Shown here piece after piece: positions 8,610 to 53,365 of a stretch of 64,000 bases of DNA; position 1 is the stretch's first letter, and each line of letters begins with the position of its first letter. Source of the stretch: Candidatus Eiseniibacteriota bacterium. Lineage in GTDB: Bacteria; Eisenbacteria; RBG-16-71-46; CAZAMP01. Below the pieces are notes generated by a model that saw only the letters and a list, made by a program, of their open reading frames with translations, searched no databases and was not told where the DNA came from. The stretch spans positions 2,084,148 to 2,148,147 of the forward strand of contig OZ245046.1 of the NCBI GenBank assembly GCA_965224245.1, given 5' to 3'. A program made the position numbers and the translations under genes.

Positions 8610-8610
8610 G

Positions 8611-11956: not shown

Positions 11957-12055
11957 CTGTGGCTTCCGTTCCTCCGCGACGGCGACGGCCGCCATCGTCG
12001 GACGACCCCGCGTCCGGGCGCGGCGCCGGGTCGACACGAGAGCGTCACTCCGGCG

Positions 12056-33072: not shown

Positions 33073-34798
33073 GTGGTCTCTGGATGCCGAACTTCTTCAT
33101 CTTGTACCGCAGGTTTCGCTCGGAGATCCCCAGCTCGCCGGCGGCGCGCGTCTGGATCCAGTCGTGCTTCTCGAGGGCCTGAACCAGCGCCGTCTGTTCG
33201 AGATCCTCGAGGGTGGCCCCGTCCAGGGAGAGCGAGCGTCCATCCCCGTCTCCGGCGGCCCGTACCTCGGGAGAGAGCAGATCGACGTCGATCGTCTCGT
33301 CCTGACTCAGCACCAGGGCGCGGGAGATCACGTTCTCGAGCTCTCGTACGTTGCCCGGCCAGTCGTACTTGCAGAGCGCATCCAGCGCGGCCGGCGTCAG
33401 CCGGCGCCCGGGGCTCTCGAACTGCTGTCCCAGCGTGGACAGAAAGTGATCGGCCAGGAGCGGGATGTCCTCGGGACGGTCGCGGAGCGCGGGCAGCGTC
33501 AGCTCGATCACCTTGAGCCGGTAGTAGAGGTCCTCGCGGAATCGCTTCTCGGCGATCGCGTTCTCCAGGTCGATGTTGGTGGCGGCGATGATCCGGACGT
33601 CCACGTCGATGGACTTGCGTCCCCCGACGCGCTCGAACTGCTTCTCCTGGACGACGCGGAGCACCTTGGCCTGCACGACGAGGCTCATGTCGCCGATCTC
33701 GTCCAGGAACAGCGTGCCTCCGTTCGCCTGCTCGAACTTCCCGGCACGCCCCTCCACACCGGTGGCGGTGCCCTTCTCGATCCCGAAGAGCTCGGACTCG
33801 ATCAACGTCTCGGGCAACGCCGCGCAGTTCACCGACACGAAGGGACCCGTGCGCGTGCCCTGGTAGTGGATGACCTTCGCGATCAGCTCCTTGCCGGTGC
33901 CGTTCTCTCCCCGGATCAAGACGCTGACCGGTTTTCGTCCCACTCGTTCGGCCAGGGCGAACACGTCGCGCATGGGTCGCGATCGGCCGATGATCCCGTG
34001 GAACGAGAACCGATCGGAGACCTCGGCGCGCAGGCGCGCGTTCTCCTCGGCCAGGCGAGATTCCTCGTGGCGCACCCGGGCGAACGCGAGGGAGTTGCGG
34101 AACGCCACGCCGGCATGGTCGCAGAACATGCGCAGGAAGGTGCGATCGGACTCGTCGAAGAGACCCTTCACCGAGCGGCTCTCGAGATACACGACGCCGT
34201 AGACCTCGCCGTCCAGCAGGATGGGCGCGGCGAGGACCGAGAGGATCTGCAGCGCGACCACGGACTGCTTCGAGCGCAGCGCGTCGTCGTCGAGCGCGTT
34301 TCGCGTGTAGTACGGCTCGCGGGTCTCGCGCACCTTCGCGACCACGGTCTGGCTGATCTCCCGCTCGGCGCCCTCGATCGTCTGCTGGTCCACGTTGCGG
34401 GCGGCCCGGATCACGAGATCGTCGCCGGCGCTCAGGAAGAAGAACCCGCGCTCGGCGCGCGAGTGCTCGATCACGAGATCCATGACCACGTCGAACAGCT
34501 CGTCCTCTTCGAGGACGGCCGACAGCGTCCGTGTCACCTCGAGGATCGTCCGCGCCATCGTCTCCGCCGCGCCGTCGCCGCCGGGCGCCTCGGTCCGGAG
34601 CTCGGGGAGCAGCGTCTCGCGTCCCTCACGCAGCAGCTGGTCCAGCCGACTCAGGGCCAGCCGGACCGTCTCGATCTCCGACCCGGTGATCGGCGCGTTC
34701 GGGTCCACCCCAGAGGCGAACTCGGCGGCCCGTCGCACGAGGCGATGCGCCTGATCGATCAGCTGGTCGAGACGCGCGAGCGCATCGGTGGACGACAT
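33026..34798 (-). CDS. sigma-54-dependent transcriptional activator (GAF sensor, AAA+ domain, Fis-type HTH)
   Basis: Internal ATG at 34796-34798 gives a 590-aa protein; Walker A 'GENGTGKE', GAFTGA-type loop 'ESELFGIEKGTATG', Walker B 'GGTLFLDEIG', C-terminal HTH; the listed ORF has an Arg-rich extension. Confidence 0.85.
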   Translation of the reverse strand: MSSTDALARLDQLIDQAHRLVRRAAEFASGVDPNAPITGSEIETVRLALSRLDQLLREGRETLLPELRTEAPGGDGAAETMARTILEVTRTLSAVLEEDELFDVVMDLVIEHSRAERGFFFLSAGDDLVIRAARNVDQQTIEGAEREISQTVVAKVRETREPYYTRNALDDDALRSKQSVVALQILSVLAAPILLDGEVYGVVYLESRSVKGLFDESDRTFLRMFCDHAGVAFRNSLAFARVRHEESRLAEENARLRAEVSDRFSFHGIIGRSRPMRDVFALAERVGRKPVSVLIRGENGTGKELIAKVIHYQGTRTGPFVSVNCAALPETLIESELFGIEKGTATGVEGRAGKFEQANGGTLFLDEIGDMSLVVQAKVLRVVQEKQFERVGGRKSIDVDVRIIAATNIDLENAIAEKRFREDLYYRLKVIELTLPALRDRPEDIPLLADHFLSTLGQQFESPGRRLTPAALDALCKYDWPGNVRELENVISRALVLSQDETIDVDLLSPEVRAAGDGDGRSLSLDGATLEDLEQTALVQALEKHDWIQTRAAGELGISERNLRYKMKKFGIQRPRGGRVGPGRPASSGS

Positions 34799-36223: not shown

Positions 36224-37339
36224 ATGGCGAAGTCCAAGGTCGTGGTGATCAAGACGACACCCGAAACCGTCGTGGACGACTACGTGCGCGGCATGAAGCT
36301 CGCGGGCGTGGACACGGCGATCGACAGGTCGGCCACGACCATTCTGAAGGACAACATCTCCTGGCACTTCCCGTTCCCGGGCGCGAACACGACGCCCTGG
36401 CAGCTGGAAGCGGCCATCGTGGGGTTGAGATCGTTCGGGAACGCCGACCTCGTGTGCGTGCAGAACAAGACCGTCGTCACCGACGCCCACAAGGGCGAGC
36501 GACTCAATCACTACGACTCGGTCTTCGAGGCCTACGACCTGCCCGTCCTCTACAACTTCAAGAAGTCCGACATGACCTGGTCGACGTACCAGCCCAAGGC
36601 TCGGATGCGGATCCTCCCTCACATCTATCCCGAGGGGATCCTGATTCCCGACTACTTCTTCGGAAAGAACATCGTCCACCTCCCCACCGTGAAGACGCAC
36701 ATCTACACGACCACCACCGGCGCCATGAAGAACGCGTTCGGGGGTCTCTTGAACACGCGGCGGCACTACACGCACAGCGTCATCCACGACACGCTGGTGG
36801 ATCTGCTCGCGATCCAGAAGGAGATCCACCCCGCGGTGGTGGCGATGATGGACGGAACCACCGCGGGATCGGGACCGGGGCCGCGCACGATGACGCCGCA
36901 CGAGAAGGACGTGATTCTCGTCTCCACCGACTCGGTGGCCATCGACGCCATCGCGGCCAAGATGATGGGCATCGATCCGATGAGCCTGAAGTACATCGCG
37001 CACGCGCACGAGGACGGGCTCGGCTGCGGCGACGTCCGCGACGTCGAGGTGATCGGCGAGGACATCTCGAACGTGAACTGGAAGTTCAGCGTGGGCAACA
37101 ACGGAGCCAGCCGCGTGGGCAACGTGATGTGGTTCGGGCCGCTCAAGTCGATCCAGAAGGTGTTCTTCCACACGCCGCTGGTGAACGTGTTCGTGATGGG
37201 GTCGTTCCTGTACCACGACTACGTCTGGTGGCCGACGTACGGCACGCGCATCTTCTCGGAGTGGCGAAAGACCAAGTGGGGCCGCCTGTTCGATCAGTAC
37301 CAGTCGTCGGTGCCCTCCCGCCCGACAGCCGCCTCGTAG
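36224..37339 (+). CDS. DUF362 domain-containing protein
   Basis: 371-aa ORF; GAGGAG 10 nt upstream; family-level resemblance only; high GC3. Confidence 0.65.
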   Translation: MAKSKVVVIKTTPETVVDDYVRGMKLAGVDTAIDRSATTILKDNISWHFPFPGANTTPWQLEAAIVGLRSFGNADLVCVQNKTVVTDAHKGERLNHYDSVFEAYDLPVLYNFKKSDMTWSTYQPKARMRILPHIYPEGILIPDYFFGKNIVHLPTVKTHIYTTTTGAMKNAFGGLLNTRRHYTHSVIHDTLVDLLAIQKEIHPAVVAMMDGTTAGSGPGPRTMTPHEKDVILVSTDSVAIDAIAAKMMGIDPMSLKYIAHAHEDGLGCGDVRDVEVIGEDISNVNWKFSVGNNGASRVGNVMWFGPLKSIQKVFFHTPLVNVFVMGSFLYHDYVWWPTYGTRIFSEWRKTKWGRLFDQYQSSVPSRPTAAS

Positions 37340-37374
37340 GCGTCGACGTGTCTCCTCGGAATCCGGATGGTGGC

Positions 37375-38505
37375 GTGCTCCGGTGCGCTCGGCGCCGCCG
37401 GTGGGGCCCTCGCGGCGCCCCTCTCCGGGCGACTGCGCCCCTCCTCGCGCTGGCGGCGACGCTCGCCGGGATCCCGCGCGAGGCGAGCGCCGGCGCGGCC
37501 GACGAGGCCGTCATCGCGCCGCTCCGGACCCGCGTCGACAACGAGCTCTATCCCCTGGCCGGCACGCGCTGGGGCGGGATCGACCTGAACCGGCGCTCCG
37601 GCTTCATCGAGTGGCAGCGCCGCAGCGCGCCTCCCGAGCTCTGGCGGGAGATCGCGCACACGTGCTCGACGCTCGTGGCGATCATGCCCACGGCCGCCGC
37701 GCGCCAGGAGCTCGTGGGGCTTCACCTGGCGGCCGCCGCGTACCCGTGGCTCCTCGATCCCGGGTTCGGCGACGACGCCTGGGCCGACATGATGGCCGCC
37801 CAGTCCCGCCTCTTCGAGGCCTGGCTGGACGTGTACCCCGACGTCCTGGATCCCGAAGGTCCCCAGCGGAGCGGCGCCCCCGGCGGCATCCGGCAGATGA
37901 CGATGGCGATGTCGGCCCTCCGCTCGACGACCCCCCCGCCTCCCTCGGAGGACGACCCCAACCCGCGCGAGCGCGTGTACTGCATCGAGTTCGCCGAGGG
38001 GGTGTCGGTCCTGGACCCGACCCTCTTCGCATGGCTCACCGTGCAGGTCATGCACACCTTCGTGGACCGCGCCACCGGGTTCGACTGTCCGTGCGTGTAC
38101 GACAACGCGATGTGCTTCTGGGTGGATCTCTTCGACGCACGTCACGACGAGCAGCCCTGGTCACCGTACGTGGAGACGGTTCGTGAGCGCGTGGCGCGGT
38201 CGTGGAGGCTCGATCGCGCTCGCATCCTGCGCTGCATCCGGCGCGGCTACGAGCAGATCGGCTCGGAGATGGACCTGGCCGGGATCGATCGCGGCGACGT
38301 GCTCGCGCTCGCGCTGGCCGGATCCGCCGAGCGCAACCGGTACCTTCGCTGGTGCGGCCTGCCCTCGAGATCGGGGACGTTCCCGGCGAATCCGGACGCG
38401 TTCTATCTGCCGTCGCCCGATGAGATCCGGGCCATCCTGGCCGGCGCCGATGCGGAGACGGTGACGTTCCCGACCCTCGACGCGTGGTGTCCGGGCGCCG
38501 AGTGA
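37375..38505 (+). CDS. hypothetical secreted protein
   Basis: Frame-1 ORF with high GC3; GTG at 37375 gives a signal-peptide-like N-terminus 'RCARRRRWGPRGAPLRATAPLLALAATLAGIPREASA'; the opposite-strand ORF 37294-38145 is Arg/Gly-rich and was rejected. Confidence 0.5.
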   Translation: MLRCARRRRWGPRGAPLRATAPLLALAATLAGIPREASAGAADEAVIAPLRTRVDNELYPLAGTRWGGIDLNRRSGFIEWQRRSAPPELWREIAHTCSTLVAIMPTAAARQELVGLHLAAAAYPWLLDPGFGDDAWADMMAAQSRLFEAWLDVYPDVLDPEGPQRSGAPGGIRQMTMAMSALRSTTPPPPSEDDPNPRERVYCIEFAEGVSVLDPTLFAWLTVQVMHTFVDRATGFDCPCVYDNAMCFWVDLFDARHDEQPWSPYVETVRERVARSWRLDRARILRCIRRGYEQIGSEMDLAGIDRGDVLALALAGSAERNRYLRWCGLPSRSGTFPANPDAFYLPSPDEIRAILAGADAETVTFPTLDAWCPGAE

Positions 38506-38533: not shown

Positions 38534-39391
38534 TCACGTCGAGGCCGGCTTGCGGGCCACGACGGCGAACTCGGACGCCGCGGGATCGAACTCGCCTCCG
38601 GCCACGTCCCCGAGAACCTCCTCGACGACGAGACCGCTCCCCTCGACCTCACGCGTGAGCGCACCCGGATCGTAGTGCTGGAGCCAGTTGTAGACGACCC
38701 GTACCCGCGCCGGCTCCACGATCGTGTACCGGTCGAGCACCACTTTCTCCGCGTCGTACTTGAAGGTGCGGAGGAAACCGAAGTACGGCTCGGGCGACCA
38801 GAACCCCCCGAGGAGATCGCGGCCGACCTCGAGGCGCTCCTCCCGGCGCTCGAATGCGCCGAGCGACACGACGTCGAGGAGGAGCGCTCCGCCCGGCTCC
38901 AGGATCGCCTGGAACACGTCCAGCAGGCGGCGTCGCTGAACGGGACCGAGCGCGCAGAAGTCGCACATGATCATCGTGACGAGGTCGAACCGTTCACTCC
39001 ATCGGTGCTCGAGGTAGTCGGCGTGAACGTGATCGACCGAGACCCCCCGGCGCCGGGACAGCTCGCGCGCGTATCGGATCGAGCGCTCGGAGAAGTCGAT
39101 TCCGTGCACGCGAGCGCCGGCGGCCGCGAGCCGCGTGGTATAGAGCCCCGGCCCGCAGCCGAAGTCGGCCACGCGGGCGCCGCCCCCGAGTGCGAACCGA
39201 TCGGCGATCCAGGCCGCGGACCGATCGATGAACGCCCCCGATCGCGACGCCAGGTCGCTCGTTCCGTCCAGGTGACACTCCAGCATCCGGGCCGACGTGT
39301 GTGGATCGGTCCAGAGCTCGGCGACCGTGTGAACCTCGAACGGTGCCGGTCGCGCGTCGATGCTCTCGAGCGCGCCGTAGAGGTCGTTCAT
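38534..39391 (-). CDS. class I SAM-dependent methyltransferase
   Basis: Internal ATG at 39389-39391 (ATGA overlap with the permease stop); motif I 'VADFGCGPGLYT'. Confidence 0.8.
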   Translation of the reverse strand: MNDLYGALESIDARPAPFEVHTVAELWTDPHTSARMLECHLDGTSDLASRSGAFIDRSAAWIADRFALGGGARVADFGCGPGLYTTRLAAAGARVHGIDFSERSIRYARELSRRRGVSVDHVHADYLEHRWSERFDLVTMIMCDFCALGPVQRRRLLDVFQAILEPGGALLLDVVSLGAFERREERLEVGRDLLGGFWSPEPYFGFLRTFKYDAEKVVLDRYTIVEPARVRVVYNWLQHYDPGALTREVEGSGLVVEEVLGDVAGGEFDPAASEFAVVARKPAST

Positions 39392-40302
39392 GCGCGGCTC
39401 TCCTCGTCGTACGGAACGCCCACGTTCCCCGGCGGTGTCGATCGTCCGATGAAGCCGCACAGGACGACGAGCGTCAACACGTACGGAATCATCTGCACGA
39501 CGTGTGAGGGCACGTCCACGCCGAGCGAGGTCTGGAGCCTGATCTGGAGCGCCTCGGCGAACCCGAACACCAGGCTGGCCAGGACGGCCCCCCCGGGGCG
39601 CCACTTGCCCACGATCATCGCCGCCAGCGCGATGTATCCGCGTCCAGCGGTCATTCCGGACGTGAACGACGCCTGCTCGCTGGCCAGATACGCCCCCGCG
39701 AGCCCGGCCAGGAGGCCCGAGGCGAGAACGCCCGCCGTCCTCACCCGGCGCACGCGGATGCCGAGGCTCGCCGCCGCCACGGCGTGCTCGCCCACCGCGC
39801 GCAGCCGGAGCCCGAAGCGGGTCCGGTAGAGCACGACGTGCGAGGCCACCGCGATCAGGAGCGTGGCCAGGACGAGCGGATGCGAGAGGGTCGGGCCGAC
39901 CACCGGAATCGCCGACAGCCCCGACACCGCCCCCGGATCGAACCCGACGATGCGCGGCGAGTTCGAACTCGAGCCGAACACGAGCTTCAAGGTGAAGTCG
40001 GTGGCTCCGAGCATCGTCAGGTTGATCGCGATGCCCGAGACGATCTGCTCGCCGCGAAAGCGGATGGTCACGATCGCGTGCACGCCCGCCACGGCGAGAC
40101 CGACCAGGAGTGCCGCGAGCACGCCGAGCTCCGGAGCCTGACCGAAGTACGCACCGATCGCGAAGCCGAACGCGCCGGCGAGCATGATGCCCTCGAGCGC
40201 GATGTTCACCACCCCCCCGCGCTCGGAGAACATCCCCCCCAGCGACGCCAGCACGTACGGGATCGAGATGCGGAGTCCCTGGGCCACGAAGGCGATCTCC
40301 AT
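39388..40302 (-). CDS. ABC transporter permease (BMP/nucleoside-type system)
   Basis: 304-aa polytopic membrane protein, second permease of the operon. Confidence 0.8.
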   Translation of the reverse strand: MEIAFVAQGLRISIPYVLASLGGMFSERGGVVNIALEGIMLAGAFGFAIGAYFGQAPELGVLAALLVGLAVAGVHAIVTIRFRGEQIVSGIAINLTMLGATDFTLKLVFGSSSNSPRIVGFDPGAVSGLSAIPVVGPTLSHPLVLATLLIAVASHVVLYRTRFGLRLRAVGEHAVAAASLGIRVRRVRTAGVLASGLLAGLAGAYLASEQASFTSGMTAGRGYIALAAMIVGKWRPGGAVLASLVFGFAEALQIRLQTSLGVDVPSHVVQMIPYVLTLVVLCGFIGRSTPPGNVGVPYDEESRA

Positions 40303-40303
40303 G

Positions 40304-41368
40304 TCAGGACCTCCCGGCCAGTGCGGCCTTCGCGCGCTCGACCCGGAGCCGCTCGGCGACCGAGCGGCTCACCAGGATCATCAGGATCACGACACCCTGG
40401 AGGATCGAGACGATCTCCTTCGGCACGAGGTCGCTGACGGTCAGCCCGCCGTGCTGCATCGCCCCGAACAGGAGCGCGGCCAGCACGACGCCGATGGGCC
40501 GGCTCTGCCCCAGCATCGCCACCGCGATGCCCATGAAGCCGACGCCGTCGGAGAAGTTCGCTCCGAAGTAGTGCCGGTAGCCGAGCACCTCGTGCACCCC
40601 GACCAGCCCCGCCATCGCACCGCCCAGCACGAAGGCCGTCCGCTGGCGGGCCCCGACGGCGATGCCCGCCGCGCCGGCCGCGCGCGGGTTCAGCCCCACC
40701 GCGCGGAGCTCGAATCCGAGCGGGGTCCTCCACAGGAATACGTGGACGAGCGCGGCGACGACCAGCGCGACCGCGAGGGCGACGCTCACCGATGCGCCCC
40801 GGAAGGCCGGGATGATCGTCGAGAGCCGGGGCAGCCAGATCGACGACGGCACGTGCTCGGTATGGATGGTCTCGGGCACCGCCATGTGGTACGTCACGAC
40901 GTATCCGGTCAGCGCGATCGCGACGAAGTTCAGCATGATCGTGCTGATCACCTCGTGCGCGCCGAAGCGGCTCTTCAAGGCGCCGGCGATCCCGCCCCAG
41001 AGCGCGCCCCCGAGCGCCGCGGCGATCATCACGCCCGCGCACAGCATCGGTCCGGGCACGCCCGGCAACGCCAGCGCCAGCGCCGCGGCGGCGAACGCGC
41101 CGACGTAGAGCTGACCCTCGGCGCCGATGTTGAACAGCCCCGCGCGAAACGGAAGCGCCACCGCGAGCCCCGTGAAGATCAGCGGCGTGGCGTTGAACAG
41201 CGACTGCCCCAGGCCGTAGGGGGACAGGAGCGTCTCGGAGACGAGCCGCGCCAGCACCACCATCGGAGACGCACCGGCCACGGCGACCAGGATCGCGCCG
41301 ATGCCGAGCGTCAACGCAGCGGCGGCGACGGCGGTGACGAGATCGATCCGTCTCGCGTCGGTGCTCAT
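40304..41368 (-). CDS. ABC transporter permease (BMP/nucleoside-type system)
   Basis: Polytopic membrane protein; start at the ATG that overlaps the ATPase stop (ATGA). Confidence 0.8.
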   Translation of the reverse strand: MSTDARRIDLVTAVAAAALTLGIGAILVAVAGASPMVVLARLVSETLLSPYGLGQSLFNATPLIFTGLAVALPFRAGLFNIGAEGQLYVGAFAAAALALALPGVPGPMLCAGVMIAAALGGALWGGIAGALKSRFGAHEVISTIMLNFVAIALTGYVVTYHMAVPETIHTEHVPSSIWLPRLSTIIPAFRGASVSVALAVALVVAALVHVFLWRTPLGFELRAVGLNPRAAGAAGIAVGARQRTAFVLGGAMAGLVGVHEVLGYRHYFGANFSDGVGFMGIAVAMLGQSRPIGVVLAALLFGAMQHGGLTVSDLVPKEIVSILQGVVILMILVSRSVAERLRVERAKAALAGRS

Positions 41369-42912
41369 CGGACGCTCGCTCGACCGCCGAGCATCCACTC
41401 ACCCAGCACCTCGGGCGTGGCCTCCTCACCCGGAAGCTCGGCCACGATCGCACCGCGCACCATCACCAGGATGCGATGCGACAGCGTCGTCAGCTCGTCC
41501 AGCTCGGCGCTCACGAGCAGCACCCCCAGCCCGTCCGAGGCCGCCTCGGCCAGCATGCGGTGGAGCGACGCCACCGCGCCCACGTCCACGCCGCGCGTGG
41601 GCCCGGCCGCCACCAGGAGGACCGGATCTCCGGCCAGCGCGCGGGCCAGGACCACCTTCTGCTGATTGCCGCCCGAGAGTTCCTCCACCGGTGCCCCGGC
41701 GTCGGGCGGTCGCACGTCGTAGCGCCCGACGAGCGCCTCCGCCTCGCGGGTGACGGCCGCGCGATCGCGGAGGAGCGCGTTCGCGAACGGGCGGCGGCGA
41801 TGTCGGCCCAGGACGAGATTGTCCGCGACCGAGAACGTCGAGACGAGCCCCTCGTCCAGCCGGTCCTCGGGGACCAGTCCGATGCCGGCGTCGGCGAAGG
41901 CACCGCGGTCCCGCCCGCGGAGCTCGGTCGCGCCCAGCGTGATCCGCCCCGAGTCCGGCGCCCGCAGTCCGGACACGACCTCCACGAGCTCGGTCTGTCC
42001 GTTTCCGGCCACACCGGCCACGCCCACCACCTCGCCCGCGCGCACGCCGAGGGACACGTCGTCGAGAAGCGTGTGGCCGTGGGAGTCCGTCAGCGAGACC
42101 CGATCCAGCGACAGGAGCATCTCGCGCGAGCGCGGCGCCGTCCGCCGCGGCGGCACCGGCAGCGAGCGTCCGACCATCGCGTGCGCGAGAGACTCGATGG
42201 TCACGTCCGACACGGCGGACGTGGAGATGGTGCGACCGCGCCGCATGACGGTGGCGCGATCGGCCACCCGCACCACCTCGGACAGGCGGTGCGTGATCAG
42301 GATGATCGTGCGTCCCGACGCTGACAGCCCGGTCAGCGCACGGAACAGTCCGTCGGTCTCCTGGGGGGTCAGCACCGCGGTGGGCTCGTCGAGCACCAGC
42401 ACGCGGGCGCCCCGGTGCAGGAGCTTCAGGATCTCGACCTGCTGCTTTGCACCCACGCCGAGCGTGTCCACGCGAGCGCACGGATCGACCGGCATGCCGT
42501 GCTCGGCGCCCAGCTCCGCCACGCGCGTGTCCGCCCGGCCGCGGAGGTGGAAGCCGGCGCGTACCGGCTCGTGACCGAGGACGACGTTGTCGGCCACCGT
42601 GAGGGGTGCGACCAGCGTGAAGTGCTGGTGGACCATGCCGATGCCGGCCGCGATGGCGTCGCGCGGAGACCGGAGCTCGATCTCGCGTCCGTCGACGCGG
42701 ATCTGGCCCGCGTCGGGACGCGTCTCGCCGTAGAGGATGCGCATCAGCGTGGATTTGCCGGCGCCGTTCTCGCCCACGATCGCGTGGATCTCGCCCCGGT
42801 TCGCCGAGAACGACACGCCGTCGTTGGCGATCACACGCGCGAACCGCTTGACGATGCCGGTCAGCTCGACCGCGGGCGTCGTGCCGTTGTCCGCCCTCGC
42901 CCCGGGGGTCAT
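41365..42912 (-). CDS. ABC transporter ATP-binding protein with tandem nucleotide-binding domains
   Basis: Internal ATG at 42910-42912; first NBD 'GENGAGKST', 'VLVLDEPTA'; second NBD 'GVAGNGQTEL', 'LSGGNQQKV'; the listed ORF has an Arg-rich 5' extension. Confidence 0.85.
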   Translation of the reverse strand: MTPGARADNGTTPAVELTGIVKRFARVIANDGVSFSANRGEIHAIVGENGAGKSTLMRILYGETRPDAGQIRVDGREIELRSPRDAIAAGIGMVHQHFTLVAPLTVADNVVLGHEPVRAGFHLRGRADTRVAELGAEHGMPVDPCARVDTLGVGAKQQVEILKLLHRGARVLVLDEPTAVLTPQETDGLFRALTGLSASGRTIILITHRLSEVVRVADRATVMRRGRTISTSAVSDVTIESLAHAMVGRSLPVPPRRTAPRSREMLLSLDRVSLTDSHGHTLLDDVSLGVRAGEVVGVAGVAGNGQTELVEVVSGLRAPDSGRITLGATELRGRDRGAFADAGIGLVPEDRLDEGLVSTFSVADNLVLGRHRRRPFANALLRDRAAVTREAEALVGRYDVRPPDAGAPVEELSGGNQQKVVLARALAGDPVLLVAAGPTRGVDVGAVASLHRMLAEAASDGLGVLLVSAELDELTTLSHRILVMVRGAIVAELPGEEATPEVLGEWMLGGRASVR

Positions 42913-43985
42913 CGCGTGCGCGGCACCGTCACGCGCCCGGAGACGATGTCGTCCCGGTAGGCCTCGACCTGCGCGTGCACGTCGTCGTCGATCAGCTCCC
43001 GGTTGTGATCGTCGTAGACGTAGTCGACGCCCCGCTCGGCCAGTCCCAGCTCGCGCACGCCTCCCGAGAAGCGACCGGCCAGCTCGGCCTTGATCGTCTC
43101 GAAGACCGCGACGTCCACGCGCTTGACCATGCTGGACAGGATGCGCCCTGGCGCCTCCTCGTATTGATCGGAATCGACGCCGATCGCGAAGCGCCGCGTC
43201 TGGCGCGCCGCCTCGAACACGCCGAGACCGGTGGCGCCGGCCGCGTGGAAGATCACGTCCGCCCCGGACTCGTACTGCGCGAGGGCCAGCTCCTTGCCCT
43301 TCGACGGGTTCGCGAACGCCTCGCCGGTGACCCCGGCGTAGCTGACGAAGACGGTCACGTCCTCGCGCGCGTGCTCGGCGCCGGCCTCGTACCCCGCCTG
43401 GAAGCGATGGATCAGCGGGATGTCCATGCCGCCCACGAACCCGATCTTGCCCGTCTTCGACGTCAGCGCGGCCAGCGCGCCGACCAGGAACGAGCCCTCT
43501 TCCTCCCGGAACCGGAGCGCCGTCAGGTTCGGCGGCAGCGTCTCGCCGTCCTTCAGCGAGTAGTCCACGCAGGCGAAGTGCCGATCGGGGAACTCCTCGG
43601 CGATGTGCCGGATGTCGTCGGAGAACAGAAACCCGACCCCGAACACGAGCTTCAGGTCGGACGCCGCCATCTTCCTGAGCGACGGCTCGCGATCCGCGCC
43701 CGATGGTGGCTCCAGGATCTCGAAGTCGATCCCGAGCGAGTCGCGGGCCCGCAGGAGTCCCCGGTATGCGGCGTCGTTGAACGACTTGTCCCCGAGACCG
43801 CCCACGTCGAACACGAGCCCGACCACGGGACGGGACTGGCTGGACGACTGGTCCGCGCGGCATCCCCAGAGCACGACCGCCCCCAGCGAGAGGCCCACGA
43901 GCGCGGCCGACACCCCGCGGGCGAGGCGGCGCCGGGGCGGGTCCGGAACGCGCGTGCCACAGCGGTCGGCCATCATCCCTCCCTC
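42909..43985 (-). CDS. BMP-family ABC transporter substrate-binding lipoprotein (nucleoside-binding type)
   Basis: Start at 43983-43985 (GAGGGAGGG upstream); lipobox 'LWGC'; '[17 protein letters not shown]', 'FGVGFLF'. Confidence 0.8.
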
Positions 43986-44545
43986 GGCGGCTGGAAGCAG
44001 TGGCGGCATCGCGCCTCGTAGACGTCGGCGGCCCCGACCACGATGCGCTCGCCCGACGGTGTCTTGCGCTGGCTCCGATTGCCCGGCCCCCCGCACACCA
44101 CGCAGATGGCCAGCGTCTTGGTGATGTACTCGGCGATGGCCAGGAGCTCGGGGATCGGCTCGAACGGGCGACCGCGGTAGTCGGTGTCGAGCCCGGCGAC
44201 GATCACCCTCCGGCCGCCCGCCGCGAGATCCTGACACACACCGACCACGCGCGGACCGAAGAACTGCACCTCGTCGATGCCCACGACCTGGGCGTCGCCG
44301 GCCAGCTCGGCGATCTCGGCCGACGTGGACACGGCCTGCGACGGCAGGCTGATCTGACTGTGCGACACGATGTGATCGGCGCGGTAGCGGTCGTCGAGCT
44401 TGGGCTTGAAGATCGCCACCCGCTGCTTGGCGATCTCGGCGCGGCGCAGACGGCGAATGAGCTCCTCGGACTTTCCGCTGAACATGCTGCCGCAGATGAC
44501 TTCGACCCAGCCCGGCCGTCCGGCCGGATGCGGCGGTGGATTCAT
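43973..44545 (-). CDS. tdk: thymidine kinase
   Basis: '[17 protein letters not shown]', '[10 protein letters not shown]', C-terminal zinc ribbon 'CVVCGGPG...RCRHCF'. Confidence 0.85.
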
Positions 44546-44598
44546 GCGAGGACTCCCGACGACCGCCGGCGCCGTGGATCGCGCCGGGTCGTCCGCGT

Positions 44599-45237
44599 TC
44601 AGTTCATGCCCGCGAGCTGCGAGCGGATCTTGGTCTTCAACAGATCGACGGCCACGTGATTGTAGCCGCCCTCGGGAATGATGACGTCGGCGTAGCGCTT
44701 GGTGGGCTCGATGAACTGCTGGTGCATCGGCCGGACGTACGCCTCGTACTGCGCGATGATCGACTCGACCGAGCGCCCGCGCTCGAACACGTCCCGCTTG
44801 AGGCGGCGGATGAACCGCACGTCGGGATCGGTGTCGATGTACACCTTGATCCGCATCTTCTCGCGCAGTCGCCGGTCGTAGAACACGAGAATACCCTCCA
44901 GGATCACGATCCGCGAGCCGCCGGCGCGCGTGGTCTCCCGGGTGCGAACGTGGTTGACGTAGTCGTACACGGGGACGTCCACGTGCGTGCCGGACAGCAG
45001 CGTGTCGACGTGAGCCCGCAGGAGGTCGGTGTCGAACGCGTCTGGATGGTCGAAGTTGAACGCGGCGCGCTCGGGCTCGGGCATGTGGCCGAGGTCACGG
45101 TAGTAGTTGTCCTGCCGGAGGATGACGACCTTGTCGGGCCCCAGGTCGTCGTAGATGGACCGGGCCACCGACGTCTTGCCGGAGCCGCTGCCACCGGCGA
45201 TGCCGATCAGGATCCCCTCCTGCTCGCGCAGGATCAT
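44599..45237 (-). CDS. udk: uridine kinase
   Basis: Internal ATG at 45235-45237 gives 212 aa '[15 protein letters not shown]...LRQDNYYRD...YDYVNHVR'. Confidence 0.9.
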
Positions 45238-45539
45238 GCCCCACCTCCCCCGGAGTCCCGGCCGGACGACGGCGAGCGCGATACGTCGTCCACCACCCCG
45301 ACGATCATCGTGCGTACGGGACCACGGCCGGTCTCCATGACCACCGCGGCGCCGCCGCCTTCGTCGTTGACGAGGACCCGATCGCCCACACCCGCGTCCA
45401 CGCTGTCCAGCGCGATCACGTCGTCGGGCTCGAGCTCGCCGCGATCGTTCTCGTACGCGATCACGAGCAGCTTCCATCCCACGAGCGCGGGATGCTTGAC
45501 GGTGGACACCACCTCGCCGGTCACCCGCGCGACACGCAC
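45234..45539 (-). CDS. EutN/CcmL/PduN-family bacterial microcompartment vertex protein homolog
   Basis: GTG at 45537-45539 (GGAGGA 8 nt upstream, 1 nt after the dNK stop) gives 101 aa 'VRVARVTGEVVSTVKHPALVGWKLLVI...ALDSVDAGVGDRVLV...PVRTMIVGVVDDV', collinear with E. coli EutN; the stop overlaps the udk ATG. Confidence 0.7.
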   Translation of the reverse strand: MRVARVTGEVVSTVKHPALVGWKLLVIAYENDRGELEPDDVIALDSVDAGVGDRVLVNDEGGGAAVVMETGRGPVRTMIVGVVDDVSRSPSSGRDSGGGGA

Positions 45540-45540
45540 G

Positions 45541-46194
45541 TCAGTCCTCCGGTCCCGCGTCCAGCGCACCCAGGCGACGCGCGCGGGCCCGTACGTCTCG
45601 GTAGATCCGCTCGAGGCCGTCGTCGAGAAAGTCGGGCGCCTCGGTGTCGACCTCGAGCACCTCGAAGCGATCGCGCGCCTCGGCCATCCAGGCCGCATAC
45701 GCGTTCTCCAGCCGCTGCAGGTACTCGCGCGAGATCCCCTGCTCGCACTCGCGGCCCCGGCTCTGGATCCGCTCCACGTGGGTGTCGATCGACGCCTTGA
45801 GGTACAGGATGAGATCTGGCGGGCGAAGCCCGTCGACCATCTCCCAGAACAGCGATCGGTAGGTGTCGTAGTCGATGCGCGACATGTCCCCTTGCCGGAG
45901 CAATGTCGTCGCGAAGACCTCGGCGTCCTCGTAGATCGTGCGATCCTGGATGAACGAGCGTTTCTCCATCACGAAGCGCTTCTGGGCCTTGTAACGCTCG
46001 GAGAGAAAGTACATCTGCAGGTGGAACGACCACCGCGCCATGTCGGCGTAGAAGTCCTCGAGATACGGGTTCTCGATGACGGGCTCGTAGTACACCGGCC
46101 AGCCCAGTCGCTGGCTGAGCGTGCTCGAGACGTGCGTCTTGCCCACGCCGATGTTGCCGGCGACCGCCAGGAAGAAGCCGCGCCCGGCGCTCAC
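45541..46194 (-). CDS. deoxynucleoside kinase (dAK/dGK/dCK family)
   Basis: P-loop 'VAGNIGVGKTH', 'YYEPVIENPYLEDFY', 'ERS'-type motif region; GTGA overlap with the hpt stop. Confidence 0.85.
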   Translation of the reverse strand: MSAGRGFFLAVAGNIGVGKTHVSSTLSQRLGWPVYYEPVIENPYLEDFYADMARWSFHLQMYFLSERYKAQKRFVMEKRSFIQDRTIYEDAEVFATTLLRQGDMSRIDYDTYRSLFWEMVDGLRPPDLILYLKASIDTHVERIQSRGRECEQGISREYLQRLENAYAAWMAEARDRFEVLEVDTEAPDFLDDGLERIYRDVRARARRLGALDAGPED

Positions 46195-46718
46195 ACGCCC
46201 GCCTCGGCCGGATCGAGAACGCCGATGTAGGGCAGCTCGCGGTGCCGCTCGGCGTAGTCCATGCCGTACCCGACCACGAACTTGTCGGGGATCGCGAAGC
46301 CCACGTAGTCCACCTTCACGTCCACCTCGCGCCGATCCACCTTGTCCAGGAGCGCGCAGGTCCTGAAGGACCGGGGGCGCCGGATCTGGAGGCTATCGCG
46401 CATGTAGGCCAGCGAGCGACCCGAGTCCACGATGTCCTCGACGAGCAAGAGATCGCGGCCGGAGACGTCGGTGTCCAGGTCCTTCAGCAGGCGCACGACG
46501 CCGCTGGAGGACGTGCCGTCCCCGTACGAGGACACGGACATGAAGTCGACCTCGTGCGGGATCGGCAGCCTGCGCATGAGGTCCGACATGAACATGAACG
46601 AGCCCTTGAGGACGCCGACCAGGATCAGGTCGGCGTCGGGACCGTAATCGCGCGTGATCTCCCCGGCGAGCTCGTCGACCCGCCGGTCGATCGCCTCGCG
46701 CGTGATGAGTATCTCCAC
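46191..46718 (-). CDS. hpt: hypoxanthine phosphoribosyltransferase
   Basis: GTG at 46716-46718 (GGGGGGAG upstream) gives 175 aa; PRPP motif 'LLLVEDIVDSGRS', 'YVGFAIPDKFVVGYGMDYAERHR'. Confidence 0.85.
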   Translation of the reverse strand: MEILITREAIDRRVDELAGEITRDYGPDADLILVGVLKGSFMFMSDLMRRLPIPHEVDFMSVSSYGDGTSSSGVVRLLKDLDTDVSGRDLLLVEDIVDSGRSLAYMRDSLQIRRPRSFRTCALLDKVDRREVDVKVDYVGFAIPDKFVVGYGMDYAERHRELPYIGVLDPAEAGV

Positions 46719-46851
46719 GGCTGAGCTCCCCCCTGCGCGCGCTTGCGGAATTGAGTCGGCGAGGGTAGCGTCCCGCTCGAGAGGGGTCAATCGGTCTCCC
46801 CGGCACACGCCGCAACGCGGTACGGCTCCGAACGCTCGCCCCGAGGTCGCC

Positions 46852-47949
46852 ATGGCAGACGACGCCACCACCCATCCTCCGATCACCCGCGAGCTGATCC
46901 TCGCGCTTCCCAAGACCGACCTCCACGTACACCTGGACGGATCCCTCCGGCCGGAGACCGTGCTGGAGCTGGTCGGGCAGTACGGGATCGAGCACCCGGC
47001 GAGGACTCCCGCCGAGATGCAGCGCGCGCTCAGCGTGGACGGGTCCCGATCCCTCGAGGAGTACCTCGAGGTCTTCGAGTTCACGCTGCGCCTGCTCCAG
47101 GAGCGCTCGTCCATCGAGCGAGTGGCCTACGAGCTGGCCGTCGACGCGGCCGCCGAGAACGTCCGGCACCTGGAGGTGCGATTCGCCCCGATTCTCCATC
47201 AGAGTCAGGGCCTCTCGCTGGACGAGATCCTGGACGCGGCCCTCGCCGGGCTCTCGCGGGCGAACTCCGAGACCGGCATCCGGACCGGCGTCATCGTGTG
47301 CGGCATCCGGCACATCCGCCCCGAGCGCTCGCTCGATCTGGCCGACCTGGCCGTGCGCTACAAGCACCGGGGCGTGGTCGCGTTCGATCTGGCCGGCGCC
47401 GAGCGGGACAACCCCGCCAAGCATCACCTGGAGGCGTTCTACCGGGTCCTCAATGCGAACCTCAGCTGCACCGTGCACGCCGGTGAGGCGTTCGGCCCGG
47501 CCTCCATCCACCAGGCCATTCACTACTGCGGCGCGCACCGGATCGGGCACGGCACACGGCTTCGGGAGGACCCCGAGCTCCTGGCCTACGTCAACGATCA
47601 CCGGATCCCGATCGAGATGTGCCTCACGTCCAACCTGCACACCGGCGCGATCTCGCGCCTCGAGGACCATCCGTTCCGCGACTACTTCGACCTGGGGCTC
47701 CGGGTCACGCTGAACACCGACAACCGGCTCATCTCGAACACGACGGTCACCGACGAGCTGGTCCTGGCCTGCGAGATGTTCCGGCTCACGCCCGGCGAGC
47801 TACGCTACGTGATCCTGAACGGATTCAAGAGCGCCTTCCTGCCCTTCGCCGAGAAGGTCGAGATGATGGCCCGCGTCGTGGAGGAGCTGGATTCGGTGCT
47901 CCAGGCGCATCATCCCGACAGCTCCCACCACGGCCGGTCGATCCTCTGA
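46852..47949 (+). CDS. add: adenosine deaminase
   Basis: Internal ATG at 46852; 'LPKTDLHVHLDGSLRPET', 'HAGE', 'HRIGHG', 'TLNTDN'; the listed ORF has a spurious 5' extension. Confidence 0.9.
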   Translation: MADDATTHPPITRELILALPKTDLHVHLDGSLRPETVLELVGQYGIEHPARTPAEMQRALSVDGSRSLEEYLEVFEFTLRLLQERSSIERVAYELAVDAAAENVRHLEVRFAPILHQSQGLSLDEILDAALAGLSRANSETGIRTGVIVCGIRHIRPERSLDLADLAVRYKHRGVVAFDLAGAERDNPAKHHLEAFYRVLNANLSCTVHAGEAFGPASIHQAIHYCGAHRIGHGTRLREDPELLAYVNDHRIPIEMCLTSNLHTGAISRLEDHPFRDYFDLGLRVTLNTDNRLISNTTVTDELVLACEMFRLTPGELRYVILNGFKSAFLPFAEKVEMMARVVEELDSVLQAHHPDSSHHGRSIL

Positions 47950-49510: not shown

Positions 49511-51289
49511 CTAGCGATACTGGCTCTTGATCTGGCCCCAGCTCTTGCGGTGGATCGGGGTCGGGCAGCTGACGCCGTCCTCGATGTCCGTCCGCCGCCG
49601 CGGCAGGACCTGGTAGCCCTCGTCGTACGGCGAGGAGCTGTCGAACTGGCCCGCGATCCCGGTGATCGTGAACGGCATGACCGGAATGGCCGAGCCGTCG
49701 ATGTCGGTGTCGCTGTCCACGCGCATCTCCGAGGGACCGGTACCGTCGTCGATCACGAGGTTGACGCTCACGCCGTCGGCCGGCCACTCGCCCGAGATGA
49801 TCTCGACGCCGCAGATCTTGATCAGGCAGTCGTCGTAGGCCTCGCCGTTGGAGGCGTACTCGCCGGTCGTGATCTCGATGGGCTCCGGCAGCGGCGCGGT
49901 GCCGGAGATCACGAGGCTCGTGATGCTGGTGATCTCGGTCTTGCCGTTGAAGAAGTCCAGCGTCCCGACGACCTCGGTGATGAAGTCACCCTCGGCGATC
50001 GGGTTGGCGAAGGTGTCGTAGCTGAAGTCGAAGAGCGTGATGCAGCAGCCGGTCGACGGCTGGTAGACCTGGATCTCCAGGCCGCCCACCCGGAACACGT
50101 CGGTGGCCACGGTGGCCACGACGTCCGTGATGCGCACGAGCTCGCCGAAGTGAACCGGGAAGCCGTTCGCGTCGTTCTCGTCCAGCTGACAGACGGTGTA
50201 GTCGGTCGGATCGGTGACCGGATCGCAGTCCGGATCGTTGAACGCGCCCGGCGTGGGCGTGATGTCGGCCACGAAGTCCTCGGCGTTGTCGTCGGTGTCC
50301 ACGCCGTCGGGGCAACGCGCGATCGACGTGCCACCCGGGACGTCCGGCGCCGCGGTCCCGCCCTCGCAGACCAGGTCCGGATCCTCGCCGTAGCACACGC
50401 TGTCGATGTTCTCGGCGGGGTCGGTGATGTCGTATGTGCCGTCGCCGTTGGCGTCGAAGGCCAGGACGACCTGGTCCGGTCCGTTCTGCCAGTCGGCGGT
50501 CGCGTCGATGAAGTCGGCCTCGGCCACCGTCGCGTCCTGGGCCACCACGAAGTAGCCGTCGCCCGGGATCGCGTTGCCGTCGAGCACGAGCGTCGCGTAC
50601 ACGACGCCGCCGTTGCCGTTCACGCCGATGAGCGCGTGACCGTCGAGGCTCTGGCCCGCGTTGCCGTAGAGCTCGGTGAACATACCCACGTCGGTGCCCG
50701 AGCCGTCGTAGAGCACCTCGTTGATCACGAGCGCGACGCCCGTGCCGCAGACGAGATCGTTCTCGGCGCCCGGCGTCGGCGTGTCGTCGGCCAGGAAGTC
50801 GACCTCGTTGTCGTCGGTGTCGGAGCCGTCCGGACAGCGGGCGAGCGAGACGCCGCCGAAGACGTCCTCGGCGAAGGTGCCGCCCTCGCAGACGAGGTCG
50901 GGATCGGAGCCGTAGCACACGCTGTCGATGATGTTCACTCCCTGCACCAGGCGGACCTGATCGGGGCCGTTCTGCCAGTCCGCGGTGCCGTCGACGAGGT
51001 CGGCCTCGGTCACGGTCGCGTCCTGACCGACGACGAAGTAGCCGTCGGCGGGAATCACGGATCCGGTCAGATCGATCGTCGCGTACACGACGCCGCCGTT
51101 GCCGTTGACGCCCTCGAGCGCGTACCCGTCGAGGCTCGTGCCGGGCTCGCCCTTGAGCTCGGTGAACATGCCCGCATCGGTGCCCGGGCCGTCGTACAGC
51201 AGCTCGTTGATGACGATCTGCGCTCCTGCCGTCCCGGCGAACCCGGTCAGCGCGAGAACGGACGCGATCGTCACTTGCAACCGCTTCAT
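49511..51289 (-). CDS. secreted protein with two tandem lamin-tail-like domains
   Basis: Internal ATG at 51287-51289 (AAGGAG upstream); signal peptide 'MKRLQVTIASVLALTGFAGTAGA'; two ~162-aa repeats each with 'INE(L/V)LYDG.GTD.GMFTEL', 'GVNGNGGVVYAT', 'GYFVV.QDATV', 'DSVCYG.DPDLVCEGGT', 'ARCPDG.DTDDN'. Confidence 0.75.
   Translation of the reverse strand: MKRLQVTIASVLALTGFAGTAGAQIVINELLYDGPGTDAGMFTELKGEPGTSLDGYALEGVNGNGGVVYATIDLTGSVIPADGYFVVGQDATVTEADLVDGTADWQNGPDQVRLVQGVNIIDSVCYGSDPDLVCEGGTFAEDVFGGVSLARCPDGSDTDDNEVDFLADDTPTPGAENDLVCGTGVALVINEVLYDGSGTDVGMFTELYGNAGQSLDGHALIGVNGNGGVVYATLVLDGNAIPGDGYFVVAQDATVAEADFIDATADWQNGPDQVVLAFDANGDGTYDITDPAENIDSVCYGEDPDLVCEGGTAAPDVPGGTSIARCPDGVDTDDNAEDFVADITPTPGAFNDPDCDPVTDPTDYTVCQLDENDANGFPVHFGELVRITDVVATVATDVFRVGGLEIQVYQPSTGCCITLFDFSYDTFANPIAEGDFITEVVGTLDFFNGKTEITSITSLVISGTAPLPEPIEITTGEYASNGEAYDDCLIKICGVEIISGEWPADGVSVNLVIDDGTGPSEMRVDSDTDIDGSAIPVMPFTITGIAGQFDSSSPYDEGYQVLPRRRTDIEDGVSCPTPIHRKSWGQIKSQYR
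50219..51220 (-). repeat. intragenic tandem duplication (2 x about 486 bp)
   Basis: DNA-level repeat, e.g. 'cgtcgcgtacacgacgccgccgttgccgtt' at 50591-50620 and again at 51077-51106; period 486 nt equals the 162-aa protein repeat. Confidence 0.65.
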
Positions 51290-51530
51290 GCGATGCACTC
51301 CTTTTGCGTTGCTGGCACTGGACCGCCGGAGCCTCACCCGGCCGGGTCCCGCGCGCAGGCGGGCACCCTCCCGGCCGGCCGACACCCGAACGGTCGGTCG
51401 CTGGATCTCCCATGGTCGCGTCATTTGCGTCAAGTCTATCACCGGCCTCGGTTTGGTACCACATGCGCGGCCCCCATCGGGCCCCATCACGAAGTTCTCA
51501 TCCACCGGCGCGCTTGCTAGACTGCCGCGC

Positions 51531-51974
51531 ATGAGCGCTCACCCCAAGCGACCGGACGGCCCTGCGCGCCCCGATCCGGGCACACGGGCCGCCCTCGAGG
51601 GCCTCGTCTCCCGGTGCGGGCCGTCGCCCGGTGACCAGTGCCCCGCTCTCGCGGCCTGCGGCGACACCGCGGGCCCGATCGGGGTCGCGGTCACGGTCCG
51701 GAGCCAGACGCCCGGCCTCGGCGCCTGCGCGACCCGGCTCGTCCTGGCCCGCGCCGTGGCCGAGGGACGGGCCGCCACACACCTGGTCGTGGACGGCGAC
51801 TGGCAACGGCTGTGCGGGCTCTGCCTGCAGACCCTGCTCGAGCTGGCGCCCGAAGCCCCGGTCTTTCCGCTCGGCCCCAACCCCTCGGCCCCGGTGCCCT
51901 GGCGATCGTTGATCCCGGATCCGTTCGTCTCGTTCATCCCCGAGCCGGCCCCCGGAGGCCCCCGTGTCGACTGA
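51531..51974 (+). CDS. hypothetical Cys-containing protein
   Basis: ATG at 51531; high GC3; 147 aa with 'CGPSPGDQCPALAACGD' and 'CGLC'; its stop overlaps the rpiB start. Confidence 0.5.
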   Translation: MSAHPKRPDGPARPDPGTRAALEGLVSRCGPSPGDQCPALAACGDTAGPIGVAVTVRSQTPGLGACATRLVLARAVAEGRAATHLVVDGDWQRLCGLCLQTLLELAPEAPVFPLGPNPSAPVPWRSLIPDPFVSFIPEPAPGGPRVD

Positions 51975-53234: not shown

Positions 53235-53365
53235 GCCGGATCCGGCCTCGCTCCCGGCGGTCGCCGCGCCCGGGCCCACCCGGAAAAGGGTGGCGAACGC
53301 CCGAAGCGGAACACTAGACTCGCCCGCACGTGAACACCCGTCGACGACCCCAACGCTCCCGTGGG

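Follow-up and report, generated by a model that had tools for sequence, protein, structure and literature searches.

Closest described systems

ABC importers of the CUT2 family that take up nucleosides together with a Bmp/PnrA lipoprotein are known from Treponema pallidum (PnrA/TmpC), Bacillus subtilis (NupNOPQ) and Lactococcus/Streptococcus (RnsBACD), and the clustering of Bmp-type nucleoside importers with salvage genes is nothing new in itself. A transporter of the same four parts (a PF02608 lipoprotein, an ATPase with tandem nucleotide-binding domains and two PF02653 permeases), likewise clustered with genes of nucleoside metabolism, is encoded in the DNA analysed here, a 64-kb stretch of the genome of a Candidatus Eiseniibacteriota bacterium with a G+C content of about 69% (the window, by which we always mean this whole stretch). 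However, in the window the genes for three kinases, hpt and a microcompartment shell protein, namely a vertex pentamer of the BMC-P (EutN/CcmL) type, belong to the same array as those of the transporter. This vertex gene, which was passed over in the preliminary description of the locus, is the truly unusual member of the operon and is the main subject of this work.

On the shell side, the closest described systems are microcompartments of the SPU type, which are defined by deoxyribose-phosphate aldolase (DeoC), ribose-5-phosphate isomerase B (RpiB), an aldehyde dehydrogenase and a triplet of BMC-P proteins, and which have been proposed to consume deoxyribose-5-phosphate derived from nucleic acid breakdown (PMC8217296, PMC11585597). 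Satellite loci that arose by fission are also on record, as are FRAG loci whose shell genes are dispersed (PMC8217296, PMC11585597). According to PMC11585597, the reason for the presence of three pentamer paralogues in compartments of the SPU type is not known. With the SPU/satellite, FRAG and HO types with dispersed BMC-P triplets (PMC8217296, PMC11585597), our locus shares an adjacent DeoC/RpiB pair and a pentamer of the clade that is called P3 below, and relatives of the window share with SPU systems RpiB and DeoC extensions resembling encapsulation peptides. In contrast to SPU loci, the window has one pentamer gene within 64 kb, no hexamer, no aldehyde dehydrogenase and an RpiB without an encapsulation peptide, and its pentamer is housed in a kinase/transporter operon.

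Another system suitable for comparison is the shell locus of Candidatus Eisenbacteria (L086 and about 50 GTDB loci; L numbers denote the loci that we fetched), in which genes for BMC-H, BMC-H, P, aldehyde dehydrogenase, BMC-T, P and P follow an Opp-type ABC transporter. Outside the operon described here, no pentamer is closer to the window protein than the third one of this locus, but that one resides in the shell locus rather than in a salvage operon, and DeoC/RpiB are not found within 10 kb of this locus. We found no description of a pentamer gene inside a nucleoside kinase/transporter operon in the literature searched, nor any paper joining BMC-P, satellite and nucleoside, and the words ‘nucleoside’ and ‘satellite’ are absent from the main text of PMC11585597.

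A nucleoside salvage operon with an embedded vertex gene

The array, recognised by reading the sequence together with a list of its open reading frames (ORFs), consists of ten consecutive minus-strand genes (46718-38534), comprising a nucleoside import and salvage set and a class I S-adenosylmethionine (SAM) methyltransferase. In our view, nine genes of the array likely make up a conserved operon for the uptake and salvage of nucleosides, to which a methyltransferase has been added in this lineage and in which a P3 satellite shell gene of an SPU/FRAG-like compartment is embedded. The array and the divergent gene next to it are laid out as follows.

46852-47949, plus strand: adenosine deaminase (PF00962, E 1e-95; TIGR01430, 310 bits, cut-off 217)
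46719-46851, 133 bp: divergent intergenic region between hpt and the adenosine deaminase gene
46191-46718, minus strand: hpt, hypoxanthine phosphoribosyltransferase (175 aa, GTG start; TIGR01203, 222 bits, cut-off 150, model 1-166 of 167; PF00156)
45541-46194, minus strand: deoxynucleoside kinase, dNK (217 aa, GTG start; PF01712, E 8e-53)
45234-45539, minus strand: BMC-P (EutN/CcmL) vertex pentamer protein (101 aa, GTG start; PF03319, E 3e-21)
44599-45237, minus strand: udk, uridine kinase (212 aa; NF004018, 297 bits, cut-off 180; TIGR00235, 289 bits, cut-off 220)
44546-44598, minus strand: udk-tdk spacer of 53 nt, the sole real gap of the array
43973-44545, minus strand: tdk, thymidine kinase (190 aa; NF003296, 246 bits, cut-off 183; PF00265)
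42909-43976, minus strand: substrate-binding protein of the Bmp/PnrA family, probably a lipoprotein (355 aa; PF02608, E 7e-62)
41365-42912, minus strand: ABC ATPase with two nucleotide-binding domains (515 aa; two PF00005 stretches)
40304-41368, minus strand: ABC permease 1 (354 aa; PF02653, E 1e-44)
39388-40302, minus strand: ABC permease 2 (304 aa; PF02653, E 6e-42)
38534-39391, minus strand: class I SAM methyltransferase (285 aa; Methyltransf_25/11/12/31/23)

All ten identities proposed in the preliminary description agree with Pfam and NCBIfam matches that exceed the curated cut-offs, its nucleoside import and salvage set is borne out by the gene families, and the adenosine deaminase gene is indeed divergent, with its plus-strand start at 46852, 133 bp from that of hpt. 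The N-terminus of the Bmp protein is a hydrophobic stretch closing with LWGC. The ABC ATPase aligns over its full length to CUT2-type sugar/nucleoside models, all of them below equivalog cut-offs, and the best NCBIfam matches of the transporter are ‘putative B6 ABC transporter’ models, well below threshold. Because no equivalog cut-off is reached, it is the context, i.e. the family name and the neighbouring genes, that points to a nucleoside as the transported substrate. Judging by the gene families, the Bmp/PnrA-type lipoprotein, the tandem-domain ATPase and the two permeases would import nucleosides, which dNK, uridine kinase and thymidine kinase would then trap as monophosphates, while hpt would salvage purine bases and the divergent adenosine deaminase would convert adenosine to inosine.

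Related loci were gathered via homologues of the vertex protein, by a scan of a genome collection and by a metagenome scan with dNK; 167 loci were fetched, and synteny was assessed by tblastn of window proteins onto these loci and from precomputed Pfam tables. The order hpt-dNK-EutN-udk-tdk-Bmp-ABC-permease-permease recurs in about 18 of them, down to a dNK identity of about 50%. They comprise close relatives (L001, L002, L003 and L167, with dNK 73-95% identical to that of the window), further loci (L061, labelled Candidatus Eisenbacteria, L088 and L155) and a more distant group (L091, L092, L094, L103, L104, L106, L108, L113, L117, L127 and L128). In 16 related loci the vertex gene lies between dNK and udk, and in another two, truncated at the contig end, it adjoins dNK. 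Genes are tightly packed in all relatives, and adenosine deaminase is in the same position in L001, L002, L003, L088 and L130. As the gene order is kept across about 18 loci, the synteny comparison provides strong comparative evidence for an operon, and we regard the first nine genes, on these sequence comparisons, as a conserved operon of an Eisenbacteria-like lineage. Thus, of the ten-gene operon put forward in the preliminary description, the operon itself stands, but the conserved unit has nine genes, since the methyltransferase is missing from all of the eight relatives that reach past permease 2. As a separate observation, in the distant sub-clade an Amidohydro_1-family enzyme is present in place of adenosine deaminase, and there is no DeoC beside RpiB.

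The vertex protein groups with the third pentamer of shell loci

The vertex protein matches PF03319 over the whole model (1-83 of 83) and has a low-complexity C-terminal tail of 15 aa. The whole protein is homologous to the pentameric CcmL structures 4jvz and 2qw7 and to the shell structure 6owf, and it retains every near-invariant residue of the pentamers of shell loci; formation of a pentamer and capping of a shell are its predicted role. Its nearest relatives outside the operon are the third pentamers of the Candidatus Eisenbacteria shell loci (55-62% identical), while the other two pentamers of these loci are 35-45% identical. Relatives at 42-53% identity belong to SPU-type loci (with RpiB, DeoC and BMC-H) in Acidobacteriota, Planctomycetota, Verrucomicrobiota, Chloroflexota and Spirochaetes.

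In a neighbour-joining tree of 139 pentamer proteins, three clades were found that correspond to the first (P1), second (P2) and third (P3) gene of the triplet, and all pentamer copies from salvage operons fall into the P3 clade. The best 80 loci of the genome scan come from 80 different assemblies (where metagenome-assembled genomes are incomplete). None of these assemblies has P3 in both a shell locus and a salvage operon, which fits a relocation of P3. A search with the Eisenbacteria P1 protein gave 2514 hits, of which the best 120 were all at least 72% identical and did not include the source contig; P1 is too conserved to be informative. Our preferred explanation is that the EutN/CcmL gene of the array is most likely the ‘third pentamer’ of a triple-pentamer, aldehyde-processing compartment of the SPU/FRAG kind that was relocated from a shell locus, so that P3 would be produced along with the nucleoside importer.

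The gene is under purifying selection. Compared with the L167 copy, which is 89% identical (dS 0.40), dN/dS is 0.20, with substitutions located mostly in the C-terminal tail, and in comparisons with other copies it is 0.15-0.36. This constraint is similar to that of udk and tdk and somewhat weaker than that of dNK in the closest comparison (0.07). The core residues are conserved across relatives down to 47-50% identity.

RpiB and DeoC of related loci carry encapsulation-peptide-like extensions

Five kilobases upstream of the operon, RpiB and DeoC, the signature enzymes of SPU-type compartments, are encoded by two genes joined through a GTGA overlap, and they are preceded by a short reading frame.

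51638-52048, plus strand: ORF without a family (136 aa), overlapping the start of RpiB by about 60-85 nt
51964-52431, plus strand: RpiB, ribose-5-phosphate isomerase B (155 aa; PF02502, E 1e-50; TIGR01120 above cut-off)
52428-53234, plus strand: DeoC, deoxyribose-phosphate aldolase (268 aa; TIGR00126, 248 bits, cut-off 117, residues 37-245)

An operon-adjacent RpiB with an amphipathic N-terminal extension is present in both sub-clades of relatives (L002, L003, L091, L094, L103, L106, L108 and L127/128). These extensions consist of an amphipathic helix followed by a linker; in L003 the sequence reads ...ELEKLVESVAREMI.... The RpiB of L091 is a protein of 213 aa with the extension ...EKIRRVVREVLDEAL... 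and the enzyme domain at residues 70-207. DeoC of L002 contains a clear encapsulation-peptide-like stretch, ...RDVLVQAITREVIRRL.... These extensions of RpiB and DeoC closely resemble those found inside the true SPU loci L077, L078 and L080, and the encapsulation peptides published for SPU compartments fit them as well (PMC11585597).

The same two enzymes look different in the window, as described below, and the 136-aa ORF that overlaps the start of RpiB may be the trace of a deletion by which RpiB lost its extension. The counterpart of this ORF in L003 (850-1284) has a weak match to cytidine/dCMP deaminase (E 4e-4, below cut-off). The helix at the C-terminus of dNK in the array was considered as a candidate encapsulation peptide and was set aside, since a helix at this end is usual in proteins of the dNK family.

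Gene junctions and the possibility of two transcription units

ATGA overlaps are frequent in compact operons of high G+C content. From hpt to the methyltransferase, the nine junctions of the array read GTGA, +1, ATGA, +53, ATGA, ATGA, ATGA, +1 and ATGA. Four-nucleotide overlaps thus occur at six of the nine junctions, whereas of the 25 other same-strand junctions (window positions 1-33 kb) only four even permit one. Moreover, in five of the nine upstream genes the last codon ends in A (GCA, GGA, CGA, CGA and GCA) and thereby creates the ATGA, while the background of A-ending codons in the array genes is 3.2% (binomial P = 3.8e-6). As the overlaps exceed the local background and make use of rare A-ending last codons, we consider them to be genuine, selected start sites. 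GGAG-type Shine-Dalgarno motifs are located 5-9 nt before most of the starts, that of the methyltransferase included.

The preliminary description had counted six ATGA or GTGA overlaps, which is right, and a single 1-nt gap, of which there are actually two (dNK/vertex gene and permease 1/permease 2); the 53-nt spacer between udk and tdk was absent from its account. Given the tight packing, co-transcription and translational coupling are the natural reading, as had been assumed. The overlaps are compatible with coupling, short of proving it, but the claim of obligate co-translation goes too far: the positions of the overlaps differ among relatives, and the array is split by the udk-tdk spacer, which is 12-152 nt long in relatives. 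The overlaps and the Shine-Dalgarno motifs within upstream genes would most likely result in one transcript with translational coupling, with the udk-tdk gap as a possible exception.

This gap leads to the best-surviving alternative, in which the array is made of two transcription units, hpt-dNK-P-udk and tdk-Bmp-ABC-permeases(-methyltransferase), divided at the 53-nt spacer. On one hand, this is the only real gap in the array, and the same junction is the widest one of the first half in most relatives. The spacer also holds a GC-rich hairpin of -28.3 kcal/mol. On the other hand, the hairpin is not more stable than shuffled sequences (z = -0.68) and is not followed by a T-run, no promoter-like site was found, and all relatives keep the genes on both sides of the gap in the same order. 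We therefore regard the division into two units as unlikely; a single transcript is the best reading of the array, and a second transcription start at tdk is possible.

Internal signals that would split the array had been named as something to look for, and none were found: scans for E. coli-type consensus sequences revealed neither a sigma-70-type promoter nor an intrinsic terminator inside the array. No riboswitch or other RNA family was recognised when the entire window was scanned against Rfam. In the hpt-ada intergenic region, no match to the sigma-70 or sigma-54 consensus was present. The sigma-54 pattern was searched because rpoN and a gene for a GAF-type enhancer-binding protein lie in the window; it gave 16 matches versus 13 expected, none of them in the hpt-ada region. 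When this region was aligned with those of three relatives (L001-L003), conservation was weak and no convincing conserved operator was seen.

Arguments against a compartment link and alternative roles of the vertex gene

A number of observations weigh against the interpretation that the array is an operon with an embedded P3 gene of an SPU/FRAG-like compartment. In L130 (2144-9002, a metagenome contig) the same operon occurs without the vertex gene, dNK and udk overlapping by 4 nt. The pentamer tree was built by neighbour-joining from 90 columns and has no support values. In the window itself, RpiB has 17 open codons before its start, no amphipathic helix in any frame and no encapsulation peptide, and the 36-residue N-terminus of DeoC (…PPALRRAIEERGPSASPAAGG) is short and broken by proline, at best a degenerate encapsulation peptide. 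Genes for BMC-H, BMC-T, aldehyde dehydrogenase and PduL are all missing from the 64 kb, where tblastn with PduA, EutM and CcmK2 likewise revealed no shell hexamer and no second or third pentamer gene was found. The enzymes of the operon (the kinases and hpt) are anabolic, and the operon encodes no phosphorylase or phosphopentomutase that would make deoxyribose-5-phosphate. Finally, internal promoters may exist, since the scans for promoters and terminators were confined to E. coli-type signals.

As there is neither a shell hexamer nor an aldehyde dehydrogenase gene in the window, a microcompartment in this genome is unproven, and its shell would presumably be encoded elsewhere in the genome. 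Because RpiB of the window is devoid of an encapsulation peptide and that of DeoC is at most degenerate, the compartment link may be eroding in this genome. A compartment-independent role of the vertex gene and its incipient decay are both possible, and purifying selection speaks against decay.

The first of these alternatives is that the vertex protein was co-opted for a job that requires no compartment, for instance as an oligomeric scaffold or as a regulatory partner of the flanking kinases. Co-option would explain why the vertex gene is retained despite the loss of the RpiB encapsulation peptide and with no shell gene within 64 kb, and the low dN/dS versus the closest relative is in line with it. 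The gene is also translationally embedded between kinases in both sub-clades: here by a 1-nt gap and an ATGA, and in the distant sub-clade by a dNK frame that runs 50 nt into the vertex gene (L091, 10644-10693; also L092, L094, L103, L104, L106, L108, L117, L127 and L128) and an ATGA overlap of the vertex gene with udk. However, all near-invariant residues of shell pentamers are kept in the protein, which aligns from end to end with shell pentamers proven by structure, relatives of the same arrangement have an encapsulation-tagged RpiB adjacent, and no precedent for a role outside compartments was found in the literature searched. We thus judge co-option to be improbable. The other alternative, a decaying relic of a lost microcompartment that persists because it lies in an essential operon, would agree with the state of RpiB and DeoC in the window and with the complete loss of the gene in L130, but it is very improbable given an intact frame with a Shine-Dalgarno motif, a rare A-ending codon that makes the ATGA with udk, the dN/dS of 0.20 over a dS of 0.40 with changes mostly in the C-terminal tail, and core residues conserved down to 47-50% identity.

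The methyltransferase is an addition to the operon

Eight of the related loci reach more than 1 kb past permease 2 (L002, L003, L091, L092, L094, L103, L106 and L130), and no homologue of the methyltransferase was found in any of them, even at E = 0.01. In L002 and L003, the closest of the eight, a convergent DUF362 gene comes directly after permease 2, together with an FtsA-like gene. The counterparts of these genes in the window are located beyond the methyltransferase and an orphan ORF.

37342-38505, plus strand: orphan ORF (about 387 aa), converging on the methyltransferase gene; start codon uncertain
36224-37339: DUF362 gene, counterpart of the gene after permease 2 in L002/L003
34855-36123: FtsA-like gene, with a counterpart in L002/L003

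The orphan ORF has no Pfam or NCBIfam match and no homologue among the 167 fetched loci. Its coding frame on the plus strand is backed by an antisense ORF with a GC3 of 0.94 and by the shadow-frame pattern, and its stop codon is 28 bp away from that of the methyltransferase gene. Since L002 and L003 go from permease 2 straight to the DUF362 gene, the methyltransferase gene and the orphan ORF together make up a 2-kb lineage-specific insertion. Repeats, direct or inverted, that would hint at a mobile element were not found on its flanks.

The family of this methyltransferase is large (more than 4,900 homologue hits), and among the matches listed, proteins about 60-69% identical occur across Acidobacteriota, Planctomycetota, Myxococcota, Thermodesulfobacteriota and others. 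The homologues inspected at this level of identity are encoded by solitary genes in unrelated neighbourhoods. Only the generic Methyltransf_25/11/12/31/23 models are matched, with no NCBIfam equivalog above cut-off: scores are 20-24 bits for the Erm and RlmC models (cut-offs 350-558), 39 bits for UbiG TIGR01983 (cut-off 103) and 58 for CpaM (cut-off 180). By sequence, the closest solved structure is 9rfr (E 3.5e-20), and a literature search for this PDB entry turned up nothing relevant. An N-terminal region of the family has the invariant residues W27, D29, S33, M36, L37, H40, L41, S49 and R50, common to 9rfr as well.

In a structure model of the methyltransferase (pLDDT 91), the nearest folds are CcbJ (4hh4), NmbA (9ri2) and CypM (7wzg), with Foldseek E values of 1e-18 to 1e-19 and target-normalised TM values of 0.72-0.76, and the top 50 fold matches are all small-molecule, peptide or uncharacterised methyltransferases. 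CcbJ, NmbA and CypM are natural-product methyltransferases with a four-strand cap (PMC12719100). The window protein likewise has a seven-strand Rossmann core and a beta cap. However, it is merely 18-25% identical to these three and has a family-specific N-terminal helical region; its identity falls under the lower bound of the sequence-similarity network of NmbA, which was built on 35-95% identity (PMC12719100). A classification as the NmbA (bacillithiol) orthologue was rejected, with an identity of just 21-22%, as was that as an rRNA/tRNA enzyme, for which the RNA models are far under cut-off and no RNA methyltransferase is among the top 50 folds. The question whether the enzyme is of the rRNA/tRNA or the small-molecule type, which the preliminary description left to classification with hidden Markov models, is thus answered in favour of a small-molecule enzyme of the natural-product kind, as far as sequence and structure prediction can tell.

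As was remarked earlier, the methyltransferase has no obvious role in salvage, and we find no conserved tie of it to the operon. One could still argue that all ten genes form one obligately co-translated unit, in which the methyltransferase is tied to transport or salvage, for instance by methylating an imported nucleoside or base. The start of its gene overlaps the stop of permease 2 in an ATGA made by a rare A-ending codon, a GAGGAG motif is located 8 nt upstream, and there is no terminator between the two genes. Against this, the gene is missing from all eight related operons that reach past permease 2, its close homologues (63-66% identical) are solitary beside unrelated genes, and the protein exceeds no nucleoside, nucleic-acid or rRNA family cut-off, its nearest folds being natural-product N-/C-methyltransferases; such a unit is thus highly unlikely. 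In our preferred explanation, this genome would have appended the convergent orphan ORF and the methyltransferase gene to the operon; the latter is probably co-transcribed with it here, yet lies outside the conserved salvage unit and would have no functional tie to salvage.

Neighbouring genes

Other genes of the window that surround the operon and the RpiB/DeoC pair are given below.

53330-57284, plus strand: TonB-dependent receptor of the CarboxypepD_reg type and outer-membrane protein of the PorV/PorQ family
49511-51532, minus strand: lamin-tail-domain protein (673 aa), with two lamin-tail stretches and no other recognisable domain
33026-34561, minus strand: sigma-54 enhancer-binding protein with a GAF domain, between the phosphorylase gene and the FtsA-like gene
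32191-33072, minus strand: purine-nucleoside phosphorylase (NF006054 above cut-off), 5 kb downstream of the operon

The pair of TonB-dependent receptor and PorV/PorQ protein is conserved beside the RpiB/salvage region in two sub-clades (L002, 43-2883; L091, 2609-6799), and it could be an outer-membrane uptake step for nucleosides or oligonucleotides. The 673-aa lamin-tail protein is kept between adenosine deaminase and RpiB in L001, L002 and L003. Purine-nucleoside phosphorylase, likewise conserved in this neighbourhood, is the only enzyme of the window that could release (deoxy)ribose-1-phosphate. Genes for rpoN, a hibernation factor, HPr kinase and PTS IIA/IIB are located farther along the window (10547-12037, minus strand, and 8109-10021, minus strand, are listed).

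Significance of the finding

In the frame of the preliminary description, the array would be an ordinary finding with the methyltransferase as an unrelated add-on; its interest lies in a conserved shell-vertex gene inside the operon. Microcompartments of the SPU type are among the most widespread, and the proposal that deoxyribose-5-phosphate is their substrate draws chiefly on the gene content of the loci and on the activity of DERA in vitro. The locus bears on two points that are open or only predicted in PMC11585597, namely what feeds SPU-type compartments and why they have three pentamers.

A further idea is that the P3 paralogue is functionally tied to the handling of nucleosides or nucleotides, as would be suggested by its clade-wide move into the import/kinase operon and its translational coupling with it, next to encapsulation-tagged RpiB/DeoC. 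We put this forward as a speculation that is more probably wrong than right, by a wide measure. Nevertheless, one pentamer paralogue that appears to be co-expressed with genes for nucleoside import and phosphorylation makes a testable link between scavenging and the compartment. Relatives with and without the vertex gene, among which L130 is the natural comparison case, together with this genome, where the targeting helix of RpiB is lost, amount to a natural experiment. If the tie between P3 and nucleosides were true, P3 could be what connects the compartment with its supply of nucleosides, for instance by serving as a specialised vertex, a gate or a docking site. This would offer a first functional clue to the presence of three pentamer paralogues, and also evidence from genomes that the compartments are fed by imported nucleosides.

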